Position numbers and translations under genes: made by a program
Notes under the pieces: generated by a model
Seen by the model: the letters and a program-made list of their open reading frames with translations, nothing else
What the model was told of the DNA's origin: nothing
Databases searched by the model: none
Source of the DNA: an uncultured delta proteobacterium
GTDB taxonomy: Bacteria; Desulfobacterota; Binatia; Bin18
Direction of reading: 5' to 3'
Length of the DNA: 64,000 bases
NCBI GenBank assembly: GCA_963733195.1
Contig: CAVTCR010000056.1
Span: forward strand, 32,001-96,000
Part shown: positions 38,564 through 52,734 of the stretch, one piece after another
Layout of the letters: every line of letters begins with the position of its first letter
How positions within the stretch are numbered: the first letter of the stretch is position 1

Positions 38564-39226
38564 ATGGAAATGCTCTGGTTAGCCATACCTCTTGTAGCGT
38601 GGATTCTCTTCGTACTCTACCGTCAGGAGAGGCGGCGAAGTCTCCTCCAGCAAATTGAAGAGAAAAGCCGGGGCACTCCGTAACACTCTCAAGCAAAACT
38701 TCCTCGTTCAACCCTTCCCTCGCTGTCATGGTTCACCATGCGACTGAATTTATCCATGTTCGCTCTGTTCACTGCGACTCGATCGAATTTGCTTCGTTCT
38801 AATAACTCCTAATTATGCCTTGCGCTTGTGCGAGTAGTTCACTACCAATGTACTCACTGTAATAAGAAAATGCGTGCGGCAGCAGGAACCCCCAATGCTC
38901 CACAAATACTCACCCTTTTGAATGGTTTTACCGAACTCGTCAATCAATACAACGAAATCACAAGATCATCCCCGATTACTGGAACCGTGGAGTTTACAAC
39001 ACCCCCCGCGCCGCTACCATATGAGCAAACCAGTCGGACACCGATACCGGAAGCAGTGCGAAGTGAAGTCTGGCGCCGTGATGGAGGGCGTTGTGTGAAA
39101 TGCAGTTCAAAGGAAAACTTACAGTTTGACCACATCATTCCGGTAGCGCGCGGAGGTGCGACTTCAGCGCAGAATCTTCAACTGCTTTGCCAACAATGCA
39201 ATCGAGTCAAAGGTACAAGAATCTAG
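38564..39226 (+). CDS. TM + zinc-finger-like + HNH endonuclease cassette gene (5' part frameshifted)
   Basis: MEMLWLAIPLVAWILFV TM segment; CTHC; RDGGRCVKC..FDHIIPVARGG...NLQLLCQQCN HNH. Confidence 0.8.
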
Positions 39227-39248
39227 AGGCTTCAGGGGGAAAAGGCGC

Positions 39249-39971
39249 AGCTAAATCGGGTAAGGGCGGTCATTGCTGACCACCCTCCCCACACCACCTA
39301 GCATGCGGGTCCGCACTAGGCGGTTCAGGCAGGATGGGAAGCGAGAGAGATCTCGCTCAAGGCTGGGTCGATGACCCTCCGCCGCAGCGCCGTTGCCCGG
39401 TACGGGCCTGGCTCTGTCGAGGCGGTCATCCCTCCGCCTTGTCCTCCCTGTTCGGTCCTTCGCGGTCGGCCTCGGAAGAGGCCGACCGCTACTATGCCCG
39501 CGGCTGACTTCTGCTCCGGGCTCAAAGAGGATTACTCCTCCCCGCAGTCAATTTCCGTGGCACGCCACTTCCCAGGACACGGAGCAGATCTCCCCGGATA
39601 AGACCGTGAGTGGTCGTTGCACAAGCGCGGCATTTACCCGATCCCCCGATTCACAGGACTTCGTTGTGTTGTGCCAACTCGTCCCGGGGAAGTGAGCCTT
39701 CTATGCCGTTCGTGTTCCTCGCCTCGCAACGCGGTCGCCGGCTTCCTTCAGACCCCACCTCGCGGTGACGCCCTTGCCTTGGACTTGTAGTTATCCTCAT
39801 GTATCCTGCGATTCATGAAGGTGAACCTCCTACAGGGGACTTGCACCCCCACACTCACGCCCATGCCGGGCGTACACCAACTCGTTCCACCGCATCGCCG
39901 CCCGTTAGCGACTCTGAATGAACTCTGAATGGCTACGTTTGGGCGGCTCGCGGTGACCGCGAGCGTTAGCG
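39249..39971 (+). other. attC site interrupted by a group II intron
   Basis: Removing the intron gives GCAGCTAACCAACTCGTTCCACCGC...GCGGTGACCGCGAGCGTTAGC; homologous to the attC at 50416-50514. Confidence 0.85.
39254..39875 (-). mobile_element. ORF-less (internally deleted) group IIC-attC intron
   Basis: 5' end GTACGCCCGGCATGGGCG; domain V GAACCGCCTAGTGCGGACCCGCATGCTAGGTGGTGT; domain VI ending CCCGATT; no RT ORF. Confidence 0.88.
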
Positions 39972-40123: not shown

Positions 40124-41287
40124 TCATAACGGCTCCGTACCTTCGTTGAGAATTGCCAGATAGTGATCGTAAGCGAATACACGATTGCGTCGGTGTCCGG
40201 TTAACTCTCGGGCAATGCCGAGTTCGAGAAGACCCTTGATGCCTTTCGTCGTAGTGGGAAAGGAGATGTTCGCGCGCCGGGCGACGTCATTTAATGTGAT
40301 AATAGGTCGTTCGCAGAGGGTATTGAACACATGCAAGGCGCTTGCACCTGCACGTCCGAGCGAATGCACGCGATCGCGATCTTCTTTGAATAACCCTACC
40401 AGACGCTGGGCGGTGCGTACTGCATTTGATGCGGTATCTTCCACCCCTTCTAGAAAGAAGTCCAACCATACTTCCCAGTCCCCTTCTGTACGCACCAAAT
40501 CGAGCAGGCGATAGTATTCGAGCCGGTGTTGCTTGAAGTAGAGGCTCAGATAAAGCAACGGCGAGGAGAGCACGCCGCCATTGTGCAGAATGAAAGCGAT
40601 CAGCAGGCGGCCTATACGACCGTTCCCATCAAGAAACGGATGGATCGTTTCGAACTGAACATGCGCCAGGGCAGTTTTGACCAGCGTAGGATAAGGCGAA
40701 TGTTCGTCATGAATGAATCGCTCTAGCGCTGCCATGCAGTCTTCGACTTGGGCGGGTGGTGGTGGAACGAAGTGGGCATTGCCTGGACGTGTACCACCGA
40801 TCCAATTCTGCGTACGGCGGAATTCACCAGGAGACTTCTCACTCCCTCGGCCACGTGAGAGCAACACTGCGTGCATTTCCCGGATGAGCCGGTTGGAAAG
40901 CGGAAAGTTGTCACGCAACCGGGCCATGCCATGCTCTAGCGCGGCGACATAGCCCGAGACTTCCACTACGTCGTCGAAGGGTACCCCGGGCGCCTCTTCT
41001 AGTTCGAAGAGTAGCAAATCTGCGAGCGAGGACTGGGTCCCTTCGATTTGTGAAGAAAGCACTGCCTCGCGGCGGATATAGGTGTACAGGAAAGTGTTTG
41101 GGTCTGGCAGCAGTAACGTGATGCTGTCCAGCCGCCCGAGGGCGAGTGTTGCCCGCTCCAATAGCCGTTGGCGAGCGTTGGAAAAATCCATAGGCGGGTC
41201 CGGCGGCAAAGGATGCGGAATAAAAGCCCGAATCTGTTCACCACCTGCACTGGTGATTTCGTATTGGCCTGTGTTTCCTCGTCGCAT
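40124..41287 (-). CDS. Fic family protein (Fic N-terminal domain, C-terminal HTH)
   Basis: EAVLSSQIEGT, HPFLDGNGRIGR Fic motif. Confidence 0.95.
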   Translation of the reverse strand: MRRGNTGQYEITSAGGEQIRAFIPHPLPPDPPMDFSNARQRLLERATLALGRLDSITLLLPDPNTFLYTYIRREAVLSSQIEGTQSSLADLLLFELEEAPGVPFDDVVEVSGYVAALEHGMARLRDNFPLSNRLIREMHAVLLSRGRGSEKSPGEFRRTQNWIGGTRPGNAHFVPPPPAQVEDCMAALERFIHDEHSPYPTLVKTALAHVQFETIHPFLDGNGRIGRLLIAFILHNGGVLSSPLLYLSLYFKQHRLEYYRLLDLVRTEGDWEVWLDFFLEGVEDTASNAVRTAQRLVGLFKEDRDRVHSLGRAGASALHVFNTLCERPIITLNDVARRANISFPTTTKGIKGLLELGIARELTGHRRNRVFAYDHYLAILNEGTEPL

Positions 41288-47283: not shown

Positions 47284-48309
47284 ATGAGCAGTAATGAGAG
47301 AAGCCTGATCCGTAAAGCTGATTATGTTGATCGTCTGCTAGACGAGGGGCTAGGGCTAGATGAAACTGGCGACTCCGAGATGACGACCTGGGAGGAACTG
47401 CTGAGGCGGAATGAAATCGAGCCCCCGAAGTCGCGTTTGGGGTTAGCGACTCTCGATAAAGTCGTCTACTGTGCCACTGGAATCGCGGGGGGAGTACTCA
47501 ACCTGACGCAGTCGTACTCGAAGGTGATGACGAATGAAGGGCTGCACCAGAAGTTCAATAAGCTCTCGAATGACTACATCGAGAAGGTAACGGGCCAGAA
47601 GGGGATTACCTCCATTGACAACTACAAAGGCGGTGGTGTCTCCCATCGTCTCGTTGGCCCAGGCCATGACCTTACGCGCTTTTTCGAAACCATTGCTCAG
47701 ATGATGTGCGGCGAATTCCTATCCAACGTACACGGGGTGGAGCACATTGCAAGCAGGTACCGCACCGGCAGTGCAGAGTACCTGCCGATTGAAGACCCTG
47801 TGGATGCAGCCATCATCCTGATCCTTCACCTCATCGGGGATTTCTTCTCGAAGCAGAGTCTGCCAATCCCAGGCAGGACAAGGCTGGCCGAGTCAGAATG
47901 TGTTGAGGTGGTCCGTGAGGTCTTCAAAGAATTCAGGAACGGCGACAACCTTAGGAAACAGGTTGCAACCTTCCTAAGCAACTTATCCAGTGCGATATTC
48001 ATCTCGCTCGTGCTGCGCCTTTACCGTTACATGGACCTTTTCATTGTTGAAAGCCAGAAGCCAGGGTTGAAGCAGTTGCAGCTTGGAGAGGACTTCAAAT
48101 ACCATCTCCTGAATCGCAACGCGCAAACCATAGCCTTCGTTATCTCCACAGGCAGGGCTGTTTTCAGCGGCAACCCTGCCGACGTAAATTACCTGAGCTT
48201 CATCCAGGTCGTTCGTAGCGGTGCGTCAATAAACCGGCTTTCGCTCCAAGAGCAGGATAATCTGCTTGCCGAGTTCTCCATCATCAGGAATCAAGTAGCG
48301 GCGTTGTAA
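47284..48309 (+). CDS. hypothetical protein (341 aa) with HRxxxxGHD motif
   Basis: Intact ORF with GAGG RBS; SHRLVGPGHDL, HLIGD motifs; hydrophobic helices. Confidence 0.85.
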   Translation: MSSNERSLIRKADYVDRLLDEGLGLDETGDSEMTTWEELLRRNEIEPPKSRLGLATLDKVVYCATGIAGGVLNLTQSYSKVMTNEGLHQKFNKLSNDYIEKVTGQKGITSIDNYKGGGVSHRLVGPGHDLTRFFETIAQMMCGEFLSNVHGVEHIASRYRTGSAEYLPIEDPVDAAIILILHLIGDFFSKQSLPIPGRTRLAESECVEVVREVFKEFRNGDNLRKQVATFLSNLSSAIFISLVLRLYRYMDLFIVESQKPGLKQLQLGEDFKYHLLNRNAQTIAFVISTGRAVFSGNPADVNYLSFIQVVRSGASINRLSLQEQDNLLAEFSIIRNQVAAL

Positions 48310-48310
48310 A

Positions 48311-48757
48311 ATGCCTGGACCTGCTCCCGTAATCGTCGCTATAGTTATTAGTGCTGCCGTTGGTGGTGCAGTGATCTACTTTTTCGTGTCGAACAAGGCG
48401 GGTGCGCGACGCGAGGAGTACATGCATGAGGTGAATGCAGTGCTCGACTTGCTCAGGCAGAAGGCCGAAAAGTTAGTCGAACGGATTCGGAAGCTTGAGA
48501 AAGAGACAACAGAAGCCAGACGGGAGAAGGAGAGGCTAGAAACCGAGCTCTCCGCTACCAAGCGCGAGTTAGAGAAGCTGAAGGCAGAAGCTGCAAATTG
48601 GCAACAGGCTGAGTCGGCGCATGGCCTCACGACGAGGGTTGCCCTTGTCCGTAGTTCAGCCGTCCTGAGTGCTGTACGATACAGACCGAAGAAGGCGTTG
48701 CAACACCTTAAGGAGAGAGAGCGAGAACTGAAGCAGGAGTTAACCGAACTGGATTGA
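48311..48757 (+). CDS. N-terminal TM + coiled-coil protein
   Basis: VIVAIVISAAVGGAVIYFFV followed by an E/K/R-rich heptad pattern; starts 1 nt after the upstream stop. Confidence 0.82.
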   Translation: MPGPAPVIVAIVISAAVGGAVIYFFVSNKAGARREEYMHEVNAVLDLLRQKAEKLVERIRKLEKETTEARREKERLETELSATKRELEKLKAEAANWQQAESAHGLTTRVALVRSSAVLSAVRYRPKKALQHLKERERELKQELTELD

Positions 48758-48775
48758 GGGGTAACGGCTAGGGAT

Positions 48776-48898
48776 GTCTAACCCGCTGCTGTATGCCCAC
48801 GCAGGGCTCGACGAGCTGGCTTCGTTCGAGCGCAGGAGTCTCCTTGCTTCGTGTGAACGCTGTGCTGCCCTGCGCGGGTGAGTAGCAAATCGTTAGCC
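48776..48898 (+). other. attC site
   Basis: GTCTAAC...CCCACGCAGGGC/GCCCTGCGCGGG stem...GTTAGCC. Confidence 0.82.
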
Positions 48899-48951
48899 GT
48901 CAACAGAGTGTCAAGTAATAAAAATCCAACCTTTCACAGGAGGAAGCATCA

Positions 48952-49754
48952 ATGGCTGAACTTCCGCTGATTGATCCTGATGACGAGCTTCTGCCTCTCC
49001 TTCGGTCCGCGCCTAATACTTTTCTCGATCCGCTTGTTGCCTATATCACAAACAACAGCGAAGGACGCCTTACCTCTCAACTTGACGACACTGCAGTTTA
49101 CGCTGCCCACTACCCAAATCACTCAGTCTATGTTGATGAGATTGCCGCTGAAATCCAGAAATTTGGCGGGAATACCATTATGAACTTCTTCCGTGGAGGG
49201 AAAGGGTTCCATACATTGAGGTGGTTCGTGATGTGGCTCGCCAATTAAAAGTCAACTTCAACGATTCTATGGACGCTGGAAGTATCGAGTTGCAAATTCT
49301 TCTTCGCATCCTCGAAAAAGCCTATCAGAAGATGACAGAAGAGGAACGCCAGGAGTTTCTTTTGAGCATTGGTCTGGAGTATGGAAAAGTGCCCGATTCC
49401 TTACCTATCATTGCGATCCAGGCAGCTCTTGGCGCGGCAGGATTTTTGGCTTATCAACTCGCCGTTATTGTAGCTAATGCTGTGGCACGCCAGATTCTCG
49501 GGCGTGGATTATCTCTGACTCTGAATCGGACATTAGCGAAGTCACTGAACGTTTTGGTTGGACCAATCGGGTGGGCCGTTACCGCCTTGTGGACCTTGGT
49601 AGATATCGCTGGTCCAGCCTATCGGGTAATTATCCCGTGTGTTGTTCAAATTGCGGCGATTCGCCAGCAAAGTCTGAGACAGATGTGTCCTGAAGGGCAC
49701 CTGAACTCAGCCCGAGCGAAATTCTGTGCTGAATGTGGTGCTTCCTTAGGGTAG
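48952..49754 (+). CDS. YaaW/UPF0174-like protein with C-terminal zinc ribbon (frameshift near 49205)
   Basis: EIQKFGGNTIMNFFRGG, GPIGWAVTALWT..DIAGPAYRVIIPCV, CPEGH..FCAECG. Confidence 0.82.
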
Positions 49755-49781
49755 AAGAAGGAAAAATGCTTCCAGGCTGCC

Positions 49782-49885
49782 GCCTAACGAACCTACGATA
49801 GGGGAACGCGGCTCTTCTGGCGGTTTGGGATGAGCGTGACATGAAAAAATTCGTTTCAGAGCCGTGCCCTTGATCGGACGTGCGA
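49782..49885 (+). other. degenerate internal attC-like hairpin (no intact GTT core)
   Basis: GCCTAAC followed by an AGGGGAACGCGGCTCT/AGAGCCGTGCCCTT stem. Confidence 0.5.
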
Positions 49886-50499
49886 TGACACGCAGACCAC
49901 TTAGTAAACAGATGCGCGTCCAGATTCTTGCACGCGATGAGTACCGTTGCTTGATGTGTGGTCGCGAGAAAGACGAGGTAGCCCTCGAAGTTGATCACGT
50001 AATTCCTGTAGCTACAGGTGGCACGGATGAACTTGAGAACTTGGCTACTCTTTGCCGAGACTGCAATAGGGGGAAGTCAGCCTATCGATTTTCGGATTAT
50101 CGAAACATGAATGTCATTCCGGAGGAGCTTCAGCAGAATTTTAAGTTTTTTCATGATGCACGTTCCGGTGATTTTGAGCAGTTCCATCTCTTTCTTTACT
50201 ACAAGAACGGAATTCATCCTGGCACCACAGATGACAAGTTCCACCACCCCTGGAAGATCTCTGGTACATCGTATGACACATCGTCAGATCAGGCTGCACT
50301 CATTAAGCGGCGTCGCGAGGAGGAAGAAACGAAGTTTCTCGCCGAAATCAAGAGACAACTCATTCTTGAAGGGAAGCGGTTGGTCATTAATGAAGAGGGT
50401 ATTTGCAAAGTCGACGGCTTACAAACCGTTCCACCGAATTGCCGCCCGCTTGCGGTTCTGAATGAACGTGAGAGGATACGGTTGGGCGACAAACGGTGA
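49885..50499 (+). CDS. HNH endonuclease with uncharacterised C-terminal domain
   Basis: RDEYRCLMCG, LEVDHVIPVATGG, NLATLCRDCNRGK. Confidence 0.9.
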   Translation: MTRRPLSKQMRVQILARDEYRCLMCGREKDEVALEVDHVIPVATGGTDELENLATLCRDCNRGKSAYRFSDYRNMNVIPEELQQNFKFFHDARSGDFEQFHLFLYYKNGIHPGTTDDKFHHPWKISGTSYDTSSDQAALIKRRREEEETKFLAEIKRQLILEGKRLVINEEGICKVDGLQTVPPNCRPLAVLNERERIRLGDKR

Positions 50500-50514
50500 C
50501 CGGGACCGTTAGCC
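50416..50514 (+). other. attC site (R'' reads GGCTTAC)
   Basis: CCGTTCCACCG..GCCGCCC/GGGCGAC..CGGTGACCGG..GTTAGCC. Confidence 0.82.
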
Positions 50515-50566
50515 AGCAACAAGAGAAGTCATAGAAAAGCACAGGAAGGCAATTTATAAGGCGGGC

Positions 50567-51024
50567 ATGGATCGTCAAAATCCGAAAAGACTTTACCTTG
50601 ACATTTGTACCCTTTGCCGTCCTTTCGATGACCAAAGCCAGATGCGTATCCGCCTTGAGACCAATGCTTACTACTTGATCCTCCAAGCCCTTCAGGATGC
50701 ACACTATACAATGGTTGTCTCTCCCGTGCATTTTGCAGAAGCCAATGCGATCAGCGACGTAGAAGAAAGACGAGAAATCATAACGATGCTGGAGAGACTT
50801 GGGACAGCGGCTGAATGCGACGTAGCAACAGCAAGGGCAAGAGCAGAAGATCTCCACGCCAAAAAATTTGGCCTTGCCGATGCTGCGCACGTGGCGTTTG
50901 CTGAGGCCACGGCGGACGTTTTCTCTCGTGCGATGATCGCTTGGTAAAGAAGTGCCGAAGGGAAAAGGTCGCGGTGACAACCATGAACCCGGTCGAATTT
51001 ACTATCGCGGAGGACCTAAAGTGA
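50567..51024 (+). CDS. PIN-domain toxin (frameshift near 50920)
   Basis: YLDICTLCRPFDDQSQMRIRLE, DAAHVAFA, DDRL. Confidence 0.85.
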
Positions 51025-51245
51025 AAGCCAGTGTATTTACGGACGAGGAACAACTGATTACGAAAGCGATAGCTATCTTGGTTAAGGAACTCGGACCGGT
51101 TGAAGCGAGCCGGTTCTTAGCCTTACCGAGAAAGAAGCGCGTGGAATCGGTGAAACGCCATCGACAATGGCAAGCGCAGTTACAGCAAGAAGAGTTCTTT
51201 GCCCACGTATTCGGCGCACGGTCGAAAGGACCTGAGAGGAGGTAA
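51021..51245 (+). CDS. putative antitoxin partner of the PIN toxin
   Basis: KAIAILVKELGPVEASRFL; overlaps the toxin stop (GTGA). Confidence 0.72.
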   Translation: MKASVFTDEEQLITKAIAILVKELGPVEASRFLALPRKKRVESVKRHRQWQAQLQQEEFFAHVFGARSKGPERR

Positions 51246-51266
51246 GAGTCCTCCCAGTGAGACGTT

Positions 51267-51295
51267 GGCTAACCAACGCGTTGCACTGAAGCCAG
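51267..51295 (+). other. left half of an attC, truncated
   Basis: TTGGCTAACCAACGCGTTGCAC; complementary to the cassette start GTTAGCCA at 50508. Confidence 0.65.
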
Positions 51296-51297
51296 GC

Positions 51298-51460
51298 CTT
51301 TGGCAAGAATCCCGTTTATTATGTTCTTGGACAAACCACGTCTGGTCGGTATCTCTTTTGTGTCGTGATACAATTTCCCGATGGTAAGGGGTTTCCGGTG
51401 ACCGCACGCTCGATGACGCTTAAAGAGAAGCGACGCTTCAATCAATGGAGAAAACGATGA
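51298..51460 (+). pseudogene. 5'-truncated BrnT-like toxin
   Basis: VYYVLGQTTSGRYLFCVVIQFPDGKGFPVTARSMTLKEKRRF. Confidence 0.72.
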
Positions 51461-51717
51461 AGACCTCAAAGATGCCCCGAATTGACTCAATCGAAGAACT
51501 CGCGCGATTTTGGGACACCCATGACCTTACAGAGTTCAAGGGCGAATTGGAGGAGGTTAGCGATCCTGTCTTTGAACGAAGACCAGGGACAGTCGTCTCG
51601 CTGCATCTACGACCCCAAGAGGCTGCGGCAGTAAAACGGGTGGCCAAAGCCAGAGGGATAGAAGAGGCTACCCTGCTGCGAGAATGGGTGTTGGAAAAGC
51701 TACAAGCCAGCGCATAG
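51457..51717 (+). CDS. BrnA/CopG-like antitoxin
   Basis: SIEELARFWDTHDLT...VKRVAKARGI...LLREWV. Confidence 0.8.
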   Translation: MKTSKMPRIDSIEELARFWDTHDLTEFKGELEEVSDPVFERRPGTVVSLHLRPQEAAAVKRVAKARGIEEATLLREWVLEKLQASA

Positions 51718-51721
51718 CAAC

Positions 51722-51823
51722 CCCTAATGAAACCACTGCGTCTGCCCTCGCCTCCACGTTGCGGATCTAAATGACTCCGGACGGCAGCGGTTTAGCGGCG
51801 GCAGGTGACTGGCAACGCTGCAT
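51722..51823 (+). other. degenerate terminal attC
   Basis: CCCTAAT...GGCGGCAGGTGACTGGCAACG, similar to the right arms of the other attC sites; both cores mutated. Confidence 0.45.
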
Positions 51824-51864
51824 ACCACGCAATCCGAACCGATGTCACAGAGAATTTCTTCTTT

Positions 51865-52734
51865 TTACAATCCCGCCTGTTTGAAGGTATCGCAAGTGTT
51901 AATATCGCCACTCTGCATTCCTATCCGGAACCACTGGACGCGTTGCTGAGAAGAACCATGCGTGAAACCGTCAGGATTCACCCGACGACCAGCCATCTTT
52001 TGCATGCGATCATCTCCGATCGCAGCAGCGGCATTCAATCCTTCTTCAACGTCACCCTGCTCAAGAATCTGCCGTTGGCTATGCGCGTGATTAGCCCAGA
52101 CACCAGCGTAACAATCTGCCTGTAACTCCATCAGCACAGATAACGCATTGGCCTGTTCTTGACTGCTAGCCTGACTCTGGTATTGCCGAAACTTGCGTTC
52201 GGTGCCGATCACATTCTGTATATGGTGGCCGACTTCGTGGGAAATGACGTACGCAACTGCAAAATCCCCCGAGGCCCCTATCCGACGGAGTTCGTTGAGA
52301 AAGCTGAGATCGAGATAGACTTTCTGATCTCTTGGACAATAAAAGGGGCCTGTGGCTGAGGAGTTCAGCCCACAGGCAGATTCAATCCCGTCAGAAAATA
52401 ATACTAACTTTGGTGCTGGGTACCGCTGTCCGGATCCCGAGAACATTTTTCCCCATACATCCTCAGTACTCGCCAAGATAACTGAGACGAACTGCGCGGC
52501 TTCATCGTTTCCGGCCGGTCGCGGTTGCGGTTGCGAATCGGTGGAAACCCCAATGTTCGACTGCGAGAATATTTGTAAAAGCTCCAAGGGATTTTGTCCG
52601 AGGAGGAGTCCGATGACAAGGAGTAGTAAGGTCATACCCCCGCCAAGCTTCATACCCCTCGGTATCCTACGAGAGGAGCCTTCGTAGCGAACATCCTCAA
52701 CGTTTTCACTTTGTCGTTCGCCTCTCCAGCGCAT
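51865..52734 (-). CDS. neutral zinc metallopeptidase (YpfJ family)
   Basis: MRWRGERQSENVED, GPFYCP, HEVGHH, ELQADC, FTHGSS. Confidence 0.93.
   Translation of the reverse strand: MRWRGERQSENVEDVRYEGSSRRIPRGMKLGGGMTLLLLVIGLLLGQNPLELLQIFSQSNIGVSTDSQPQPRPAGNDEAAQFVSVILASTEDVWGKMFSGSGQRYPAPKLVLFSDGIESACGLNSSATGPFYCPRDQKVYLDLSFLNELRRIGASGDFAVAYVISHEVGHHIQNVIGTERKFRQYQSQASSQEQANALSVLMELQADCYAGVWANHAHSQRQILEQGDVEEGLNAAAAIGDDRMQKMAGRRVNPDGFTHGSSQQRVQWFRIGMQSGDINTCDTFKQAGL

Follow-up and report, generated by a model that had tools for sequence, protein, structure and literature searches.

A complete group IIC-attC intron without its reverse-transcriptase gene and its probable mobility in trans

Positions 39255..39875 of the minus strand, in the 64,000-nt stretch of bacterial DNA analyzed here (the window, whose numbering is used throughout), hold a 621-nt group IIC-attC intron, a complete ribozyme that has lost its own reverse-transcriptase (RT) gene. 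We give a probability of about 0.8 to the reading in which the gene was lost by a deletion in domain IV and the intron likely still retrohomes by means of a relative's protein.

Boundaries of the ribozyme and its attC site

The group IIC 5' end, GTACGCCCGGCATGGGCG at 39875 on the minus strand, and the IIC-type domain V AACCGCC at 39325-39293, both named in an initial annotation made from the letters of the window, are present in the sequence. That annotation had proposed Rfam models and folding of domains I-VI as checks, and both agree with it. Three Rfam models match the intron, all at or above the gathering score: group-II-D1D4-3 (111 bits at 39769-39603), D1D4-1 (41.8 bits at 39545-39455) and Intron_gpII (40.1 bits at 39325-39255). 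The 621-nt RNA folds better than shuffled sequences (z -6.9; 0/20 shuffles equally good), and the consensus of 22 complete family copies contains 181 pairs, 39 of them with double-sided change, in a six-domain layout. The six-domain fold, the domain V and a bulged A in domain VI assign the element to the group II introns, while the short domain V with its CGC triad, a 4-nt EBS1 and a 5'-exon hairpin replacing IBS2 assign it to group IIC.

Read from GUACG to CCCGAU on the minus strand, domain I covers 39593..39870 and is closed by a stem of nt 6-10 with nt 279-283 (consensus structure, RF02001). Its d3 loop carries EBS1, ACAA, at 39669..39672, a position assigned from the Rfam alignment and the IIC register; it makes 3/4 pairs with the IBS1 TGGT, leaving one mismatched position. 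Domains II and III lie at 39454..39592 (RF01998 and folds), followed by a shortened domain IV at 39326..39450, with a basal stem, a DIVa-like stem containing the RBS and start codon, and a capped DIVb-like stem. Domain V, with a short stem and a 2-pair gap relative to the Rfam model, spans 39293..39325, and domain VI spans 39255..39292 (Rfam and fold), where the A at 39261, seven positions before the intron ends, is bulged.

The 3' boundary had been set at 39254, after CCCGATT, for a length of 622 nt. The true end is 39255, after CCCGAT, because the Rfam Intron_gpII match stops there, the branch A then lies 7 nt from the end, 59/60 distinct 3' exons of ORF-less family copies open with TA, TC or TG and none with TT, two clinical (plasmid) IIC-attC introns end CCCGAT/TAG, and one record (L235) has CCCGAT fused straight to GTACG. 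Records L235 and L205 contain head-to-tail intron junctions, the tandem pair of L205 without one base at the joint, and these could stem from insertion in tandem, from a copy that derives from a circle or from looping in the assembly. The GUACG 5' end is no special lesion, as clinical IIC-attC introns begin identically, and a simple, crude scan found no sigma-70-like outward promoter within the intron; such an internal promoter, Pout, is a frequent trait of IIC-attC introns and not one that defines them all. The term MITE-like, applied to the element at first, holds as an analogy only: MITEs have terminal inverted repeats and a target-site duplication and are moved by a transposase, and the ends here are intron splice junctions, without duplication across the family.

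The larger part of the attC, at 39876..39971 on the minus strand, forms the 5' exon hairpin (R' CGCTAAC, L' GGTCACC, L'' GGTGGAAC) and ends with TGGT, the IBS1; the remainder of the R'' box, the 3' exon TTAGCTG, lies at 39248..39254 on the same strand, and its first T is IBS3. The intron, annotated at first as lying in the attC inverse core, splits the GTT of the bottom-strand R'' box, but with the corrected 3' end the site reads TGGT/TTAG instead of TGGT/TA. This is one T beyond the family rule, only this locus has TT, and the spacer between L'' and R'' is 6 nt versus 5 nt in a sibling attC at 50410-50520. Excision had been expected to rebuild a full attC, and removal of 622 nt does give a better R box than removal of 621 nt (-23.4 vs -20.5 kcal/mol), but the family evidence sets the intron at 621 nt. 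For the extra T there are two readings, an error in the sequence or the gain of 1 nt at this position; an error is a fair explanation in view of the frameshifts in the adjacent HNH gene and of two 98.6% identical repeats in the assembly that differ by 7 single-base gaps.

The R and L boxes of the window attC are in the correct register, and a strict box test was passed by this site and by 14/24 family sites versus 16/220 shuffles; most family sites that fail still start with an R-like heptamer in another register, and one of them, L205, turns out to be an intron copy in tandem. Taken by itself, the hairpin energy of the window attC was no better than that of shuffles (z -0.85). According to the target-site descriptions in PMC7923331 and PMC3001079, IIC-attC introns have TTGT/T in the bottom-strand R'' of attC as their consensus site and run against the direction of the cassette. 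The window intron shares the R'' insertion in the bottom strand, as a TGGT/T variant, and has an HNH gene on the opposite strand; its domain IV does not encode the class C-attC RT/maturase without endonuclease that is typical of these introns and that two RT-coding relatives (L014 and L015, below) do encode. Since only a 34-codon remnant is left, we regard it as a deletion derivative and not as a standard member of the class. Across the family, EBS1 is ACAA or ACCA and tends to fit TTGT or TGGT (agreement over all copies 17/8/2/8, p 0.022, with kin that are not independent); retargeting through EBS1 among the ORF-less copies was not significant (13/8/1/4, p 0.15). No empty allele of the window site was found; at the 3 closest loci, the HNH homologues are not followed by an attC of this kind. 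The genome-wide attC scan was insensitive, giving 19 matches versus 5 in the reversed genome, and a regex search gave none.

The HNH nuclease gene lies ahead of the attC at 38564..39226 on the plus strand (Pfam and homologues). Its only single open frame is 38828-39226; the N-terminal part lies in other frames, and a membrane-like N-terminal segment is split over reading frames when compared to the homologues L263 and L264, so that the gene is either a pseudogene or carries assembly errors. Upstream of it we found neither attC nor attI, only a GTTAGCG heptamer ~50 nt before the start, with no hairpin. As the GTT of R'' is split, the R box can presumably no longer fold for IntI. That the intron blocks excision of the HNH cassette, as initially proposed, is nevertheless doubtful and here probably of no consequence: the gene carries frameshifts, the search upstream of it found no site, and intact intI, which encodes the integrase, lies on a different contig, C33. 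On the other side, a fic gene at 40124..41287 on the minus strand (Pfam) points into the attC bottom strand; a simple scan found no terminator between fic and the intron, and fic read-through is a possible source of intron transcription. Further along the window, 47284-52000 holds a cassette-like cluster, in which the sibling attC (core GTAAG) lies behind a second HNH gene, another hairpin occurs near 48775-48885 and toxin-antitoxin-like small genes follow downstream.

Domain IV and the deleted reverse-transcriptase gene

Domain IV measures 129 nt by the limits set in our scripts, and 1362 nt in the RT-coding parents. The 34-codon frame that had been read as a remnant behind an RBS is present at 39325..39429 on the minus strand, with GGAGG upstream. 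It consists of the first 26 codons of the parent IEP joined to the last ~7 codons and the stop, and 14/26 of its residues are identical to residues 1-26 of that protein. What the deletion took out is the ORF loop; the stems of domain IV, the RBS and codons 1-26 are still there. Across the junction, a hairpin AGCGAGA-TCTC-TCTCGCT (39340..39357, minus strand; 7 bp with a 4-nt loop) shows compensation among copies, its third pair switching between U-A and C-G, and in the parents the ORF ends are complementary (AGTGAG...CTCACT), both carrying GATC(T). Compared across copies, these sequences indicate that the RT gene formed the loop of a stem in domain IV and was lost with that loop, and that the stem is now closed, with changes that compensate.

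The domain IV pairs are well kept: scored on the same alignment from which the structure was derived, 98.1% of cells are retained and 20 cells have a double-sided change, a result reached in 0/500 shuffles. Covariation proper concerns 4/38 pairs only and does not exceed shuffles (135/500). Almost unchanged within domain IV is the stem with the RBS and start codon, which is the usual IEP-binding region. A functional 34-aa peptide was rejected, as the start and an in-frame stop are kept in only 21/59 scorable ORF-less copies (23 more being not scorable), and the remnant has no match in Pfam or NCBIfam. Since the peptide is not conserved, it is the RNA structure that is kept, and the kept structure is likely the protein-binding stem.

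A single origin of the deletion did not emerge from the analysis: a tree of 40 rows requires 3-4 changes between the RT and ORF-less states, and the junctions fall into at least two length classes, 30-31 and 35-37 nt ahead of domain V. Together with the presence of both domain VI types in both RT-bearing and ORF-less forms, this points to multiple deletions or to recombination between copies. In the same tree, 7/8 RT copies fall within one supported clade.

Family, parents and probable movement of the short form

In the own genome (G000), four attC sites contain one copy each: that of the window and those on contigs C55, C66 and C6. The C66 copy is split in domain I by a 1220-bp IS (G000:C66:40481-41700, L275) that ends in inverted repeats and whose DDE_3 transposase is spread over two frames. 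The C6 copy (G000:C6:101556-103946, part in L148) contains, in a twintron-like arrangement, a second group II intron that codes for an RT and is inserted behind nt 385; the inner intron has a 98.6% identical copy at another site on C39, and the contig ends inside the nested copy, cutting off domain IV of the outer one. Domain V-VI matches with no RT ORF nearby also occur at G000:C48:5465-5539, C48:8664-8738 and C26:465-539.

Family matches were found in 17/61 genomes searched, the own included. Complete ORF-less copies number 3 in G000, 7 in G003 and 1 in G013, with a domain IV of 128-130 nt in all, and one G003 ORF-less copy has a further internal deletion. A metagenome scan for a domain IV motif that the two forms have in common returned 104 matches (82 ORF-less, 11 RT-bearing, 7 other and 4 too short; full flanks for 80 only). 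The motif had been picked from these very sequences, so that RT relatives at a greater distance do not enter these figures. A 5'-motif scan of named genomes found 72 loci, distributed over several phyla, which after removal of duplicates include several more distant short derivatives. The phylum-wide domain IV query gave 0/400 among other genomes, only one of them drawn from the same family, so that the close family appears narrow in that sample; in viral contigs, 3 matches to the 5' motif were obtained, none from the family of the window intron. Other, unrelated short IIC-attC derivatives are seen in L103, L105, L116, L127, L129 and L258; L103 measures 588 nt, has a domain IV of about 50 nt and is the sister of the RT-bearing L072 and L091, so that the ORF has been lost repeatedly in the lineage.

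RT-coding parents are found in two relatives, L014 in G011 and L015 in G005; over DI-DIVa, the identity with the window copy is 85% for L014 and 81% for L015. The IEP of both parents has 445 aa, scores over the TIGR04416 cut-off, contains RVT_1 and GIIM and no HNH or other endonuclease domain, and is 53-54% identical to the IEPs of clinical/plasmid integron introns. At the RT active site, L014 and L015 have YCDD; other lineage members and the plasmid introns have YADD. No intact cognate IEP was found in the incomplete assemblies G000 (93% complete), G003 and G013, the latter two containing fragments only, while G005 has an intact parent and an ORF-less junction in one genome. A search for further short copies and a full RT-encoding parent, suggested at the outset, thus succeeded for the short copies in the own genome, and for the parent in relatives only. 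A different IIC intron at G000:C64:1-5100 has an IEP 55-61% identical to that of the parents, broken by frameshifts and a recombinase-type insertion, and intact RTs of other classes are encoded on C35 and C83.

Among 64 family copies there are 60 distinct 3' exons, and insertion is at one and the same base in many different attC bottom strands. Three ORF-less copies (L187, L194 and L219) show no difference between the 5' end and domain V although each is in an attC site of its own, which suggests that the short form still moves; L043 and L177, 98.4% identical, occupy two different attC sites. Copies within one genome differ by about 10%, which argues against a recent local burst. The initial view of a non-autonomous element mobilized in trans is supported by the parents, the many attC sites and the read-derived contigs described below; no intact cognate RT was found in this assembly. 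From these comparisons, the short form likely moves with the parent's RT acting in trans. By analogy with IIC-attC introns and with those of T. elongatus, the minus strand would be transcribed, here possibly by fic read-through, the parent maturase/RT would bind the retained DIVa-like stem and the RNA would splice out; it would then reverse-splice into the single-stranded attC bottom-strand hairpin at T(T/G)GT/T via EBS1 and EBS3, to be copied into DNA. Because no intact cognate RT was found in its assembly, the window copy is probably a passenger now.

Alternatively, the short copies might be dead relics of full-length introns, each of which lost its ORF in place by repeated deletion at a hairpin/GATC microhomology hotspot or by gene conversion with an ORF-less copy as the donor, in which case the short form would never be the one that moves. 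The two or more junction classes, the 3-4 state changes in the tree, the GATC(T) at both parent ORF ends and the occurrence of both domain VI types in both forms, hence common recombination, are all expected from such a history. We nonetheless consider it unlikely, given the 82 to 11 ratio of ORF-less to RT copies, the three attC sites occupied by identical short copies, the grouping of 7/8 RT copies in one supported clade and the compensatory changes that preserve a junction hairpin whose pairing a dead sequence does not need. The assembly itself could also mislead: the initial annotation had named collapse of an RT ORF at this locus as what would overturn it, and the frameshifts in the HNH gene and the 7 single-base gaps between repeats are compatible with local errors. 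The same junction recurs in three contigs of the own genome, two other genomes, 82 metagenome records and contigs of independent runs, so that an artefact is highly improbable and we reject the collapse. Contigs of 3/4 runs (X1, X6 and X17) cross the junction with >31 letters on each side, the X1 (DNA) contig matching 39283-39471 with 0 differences over 189 nt; X6 and X17 are RNA libraries, and these contigs indicate that the joined form is present in other samples, not that it is expressed.

Movement with no parent in the cell, through a non-cognate RT or by protein-free, HYER-like hydrolysis or reverse splicing of single-stranded attC, would account for the three assemblies that have complete short copies and no intact cognate IEP, the other-class RTs on C35 and C83 being at hand. 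It would also fit the use of attC as single-stranded DNA, and HYERs are described as ORF-less IIC introns cutting single-stranded DNA in the available text of 10.1101/2024.08.31.610620 and PMC11127173. Against this stand the almost unchanged stem with the RBS and start codon, the cognate RT fragments in G003 and G013 and the intact enzyme in G005; besides, such assemblies often miss multicopy elements, and an RT is needed for DNA copying in any case. We therefore see it as quite improbable and retain mobilization by the parent's RT. The picture of gene-less IIC-attC ribozymes that have outgrown their parent ~7 to 1 and spread without a cognate RT, by foreign RTs or protein-free attack, is an outside chance; if true, it would mean an RNA-only parasite locking or cutting integron cassettes.

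Significance and relation to known introns

In this lineage the short form is the commonest (82 vs 11) and has signs of current movement, so that RT-based surveys would undercount the introns that invade attC sites. Parent and minimal copy form a natural pair, known in dozens of variants, which marks the part of domain IV that a IIC maturase needs and is a ready test system for trans-mobilization into attC, which bears on integron site inactivation or cassette formation. IIC-attC introns, trans-mobilized ORF-less introns and ORF-less IIC introns are each known already, and the mechanism is not new. Searches of open-access literature found no paper on a mobile ORF-less IIC-attC family, and the window family does not appear in the available portions of PMC8876359, PMC8643678, PMC8919778 and PMC3053210.

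The closest relatives are the IIC-attC introns of the S.ma.I2 lineage (plasmid copies L260 and L261). As far as they are described in the sections of PMC3001079 and PMC7923331 available, the window intron shares with them the IIC ribozyme, the 5' end GTACGCCC, the 3' end CCCGAT, the EBS1 ACAA and an R'' insertion in the attC bottom strand, antisense to the cassette gene. Unlike them, its family has no IEP, a domain IV of 129 nt and many environmental copies, many of which are at TGGT/T and some of which have EBS1 ACCA; its parents have YCDD, not YADD, and no sigma-70-like outward promoter was found in the window copy by the crude scan. The ORF-less TeI3 introns of Thermosynechococcus elongatus, in the part of PMC2882425 that covers them, are alike in the DIVb deletion, the N- and C-terminal ORF remnants, the shared breakpoints and the excess of short over long copies, and their mobility through an IEP in trans was demonstrated (Mohr et al, 2010). 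The window family likewise has a common deletion of the ORF in DIVb, after which remnants of its two ends stayed behind, and a subsequent spread to many sites. TeI3 introns are, by the same account, IIB1/CL introns in one genome, retargeted by EBS change, whereas the present family is IIC, targets attC hairpins and extends over many genomes and metagenomes.

HYERs, as outlined in the available text of Liu et al (2024), resemble the window intron as ORF-less IIC ribozymes of similar size with a short target-pairing loop; unlike them, by that description, the window family can be traced to a parent, carries a precise deletion and targets attC. Group II introns of bacteria that lack an ORF are reviewed as rare and mostly immobile in the relevant passages of PMC4424553, which also present C.te.I1 of Clostridium tetani, likewise a bacterial ORF-less intron with no cognate IEP in its genome. 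C.te.I1 is described there as a single-locus splicing element within a gene, whereas the window intron is intergenic, antisense to a cassette gene and belongs to a family present at many sites.
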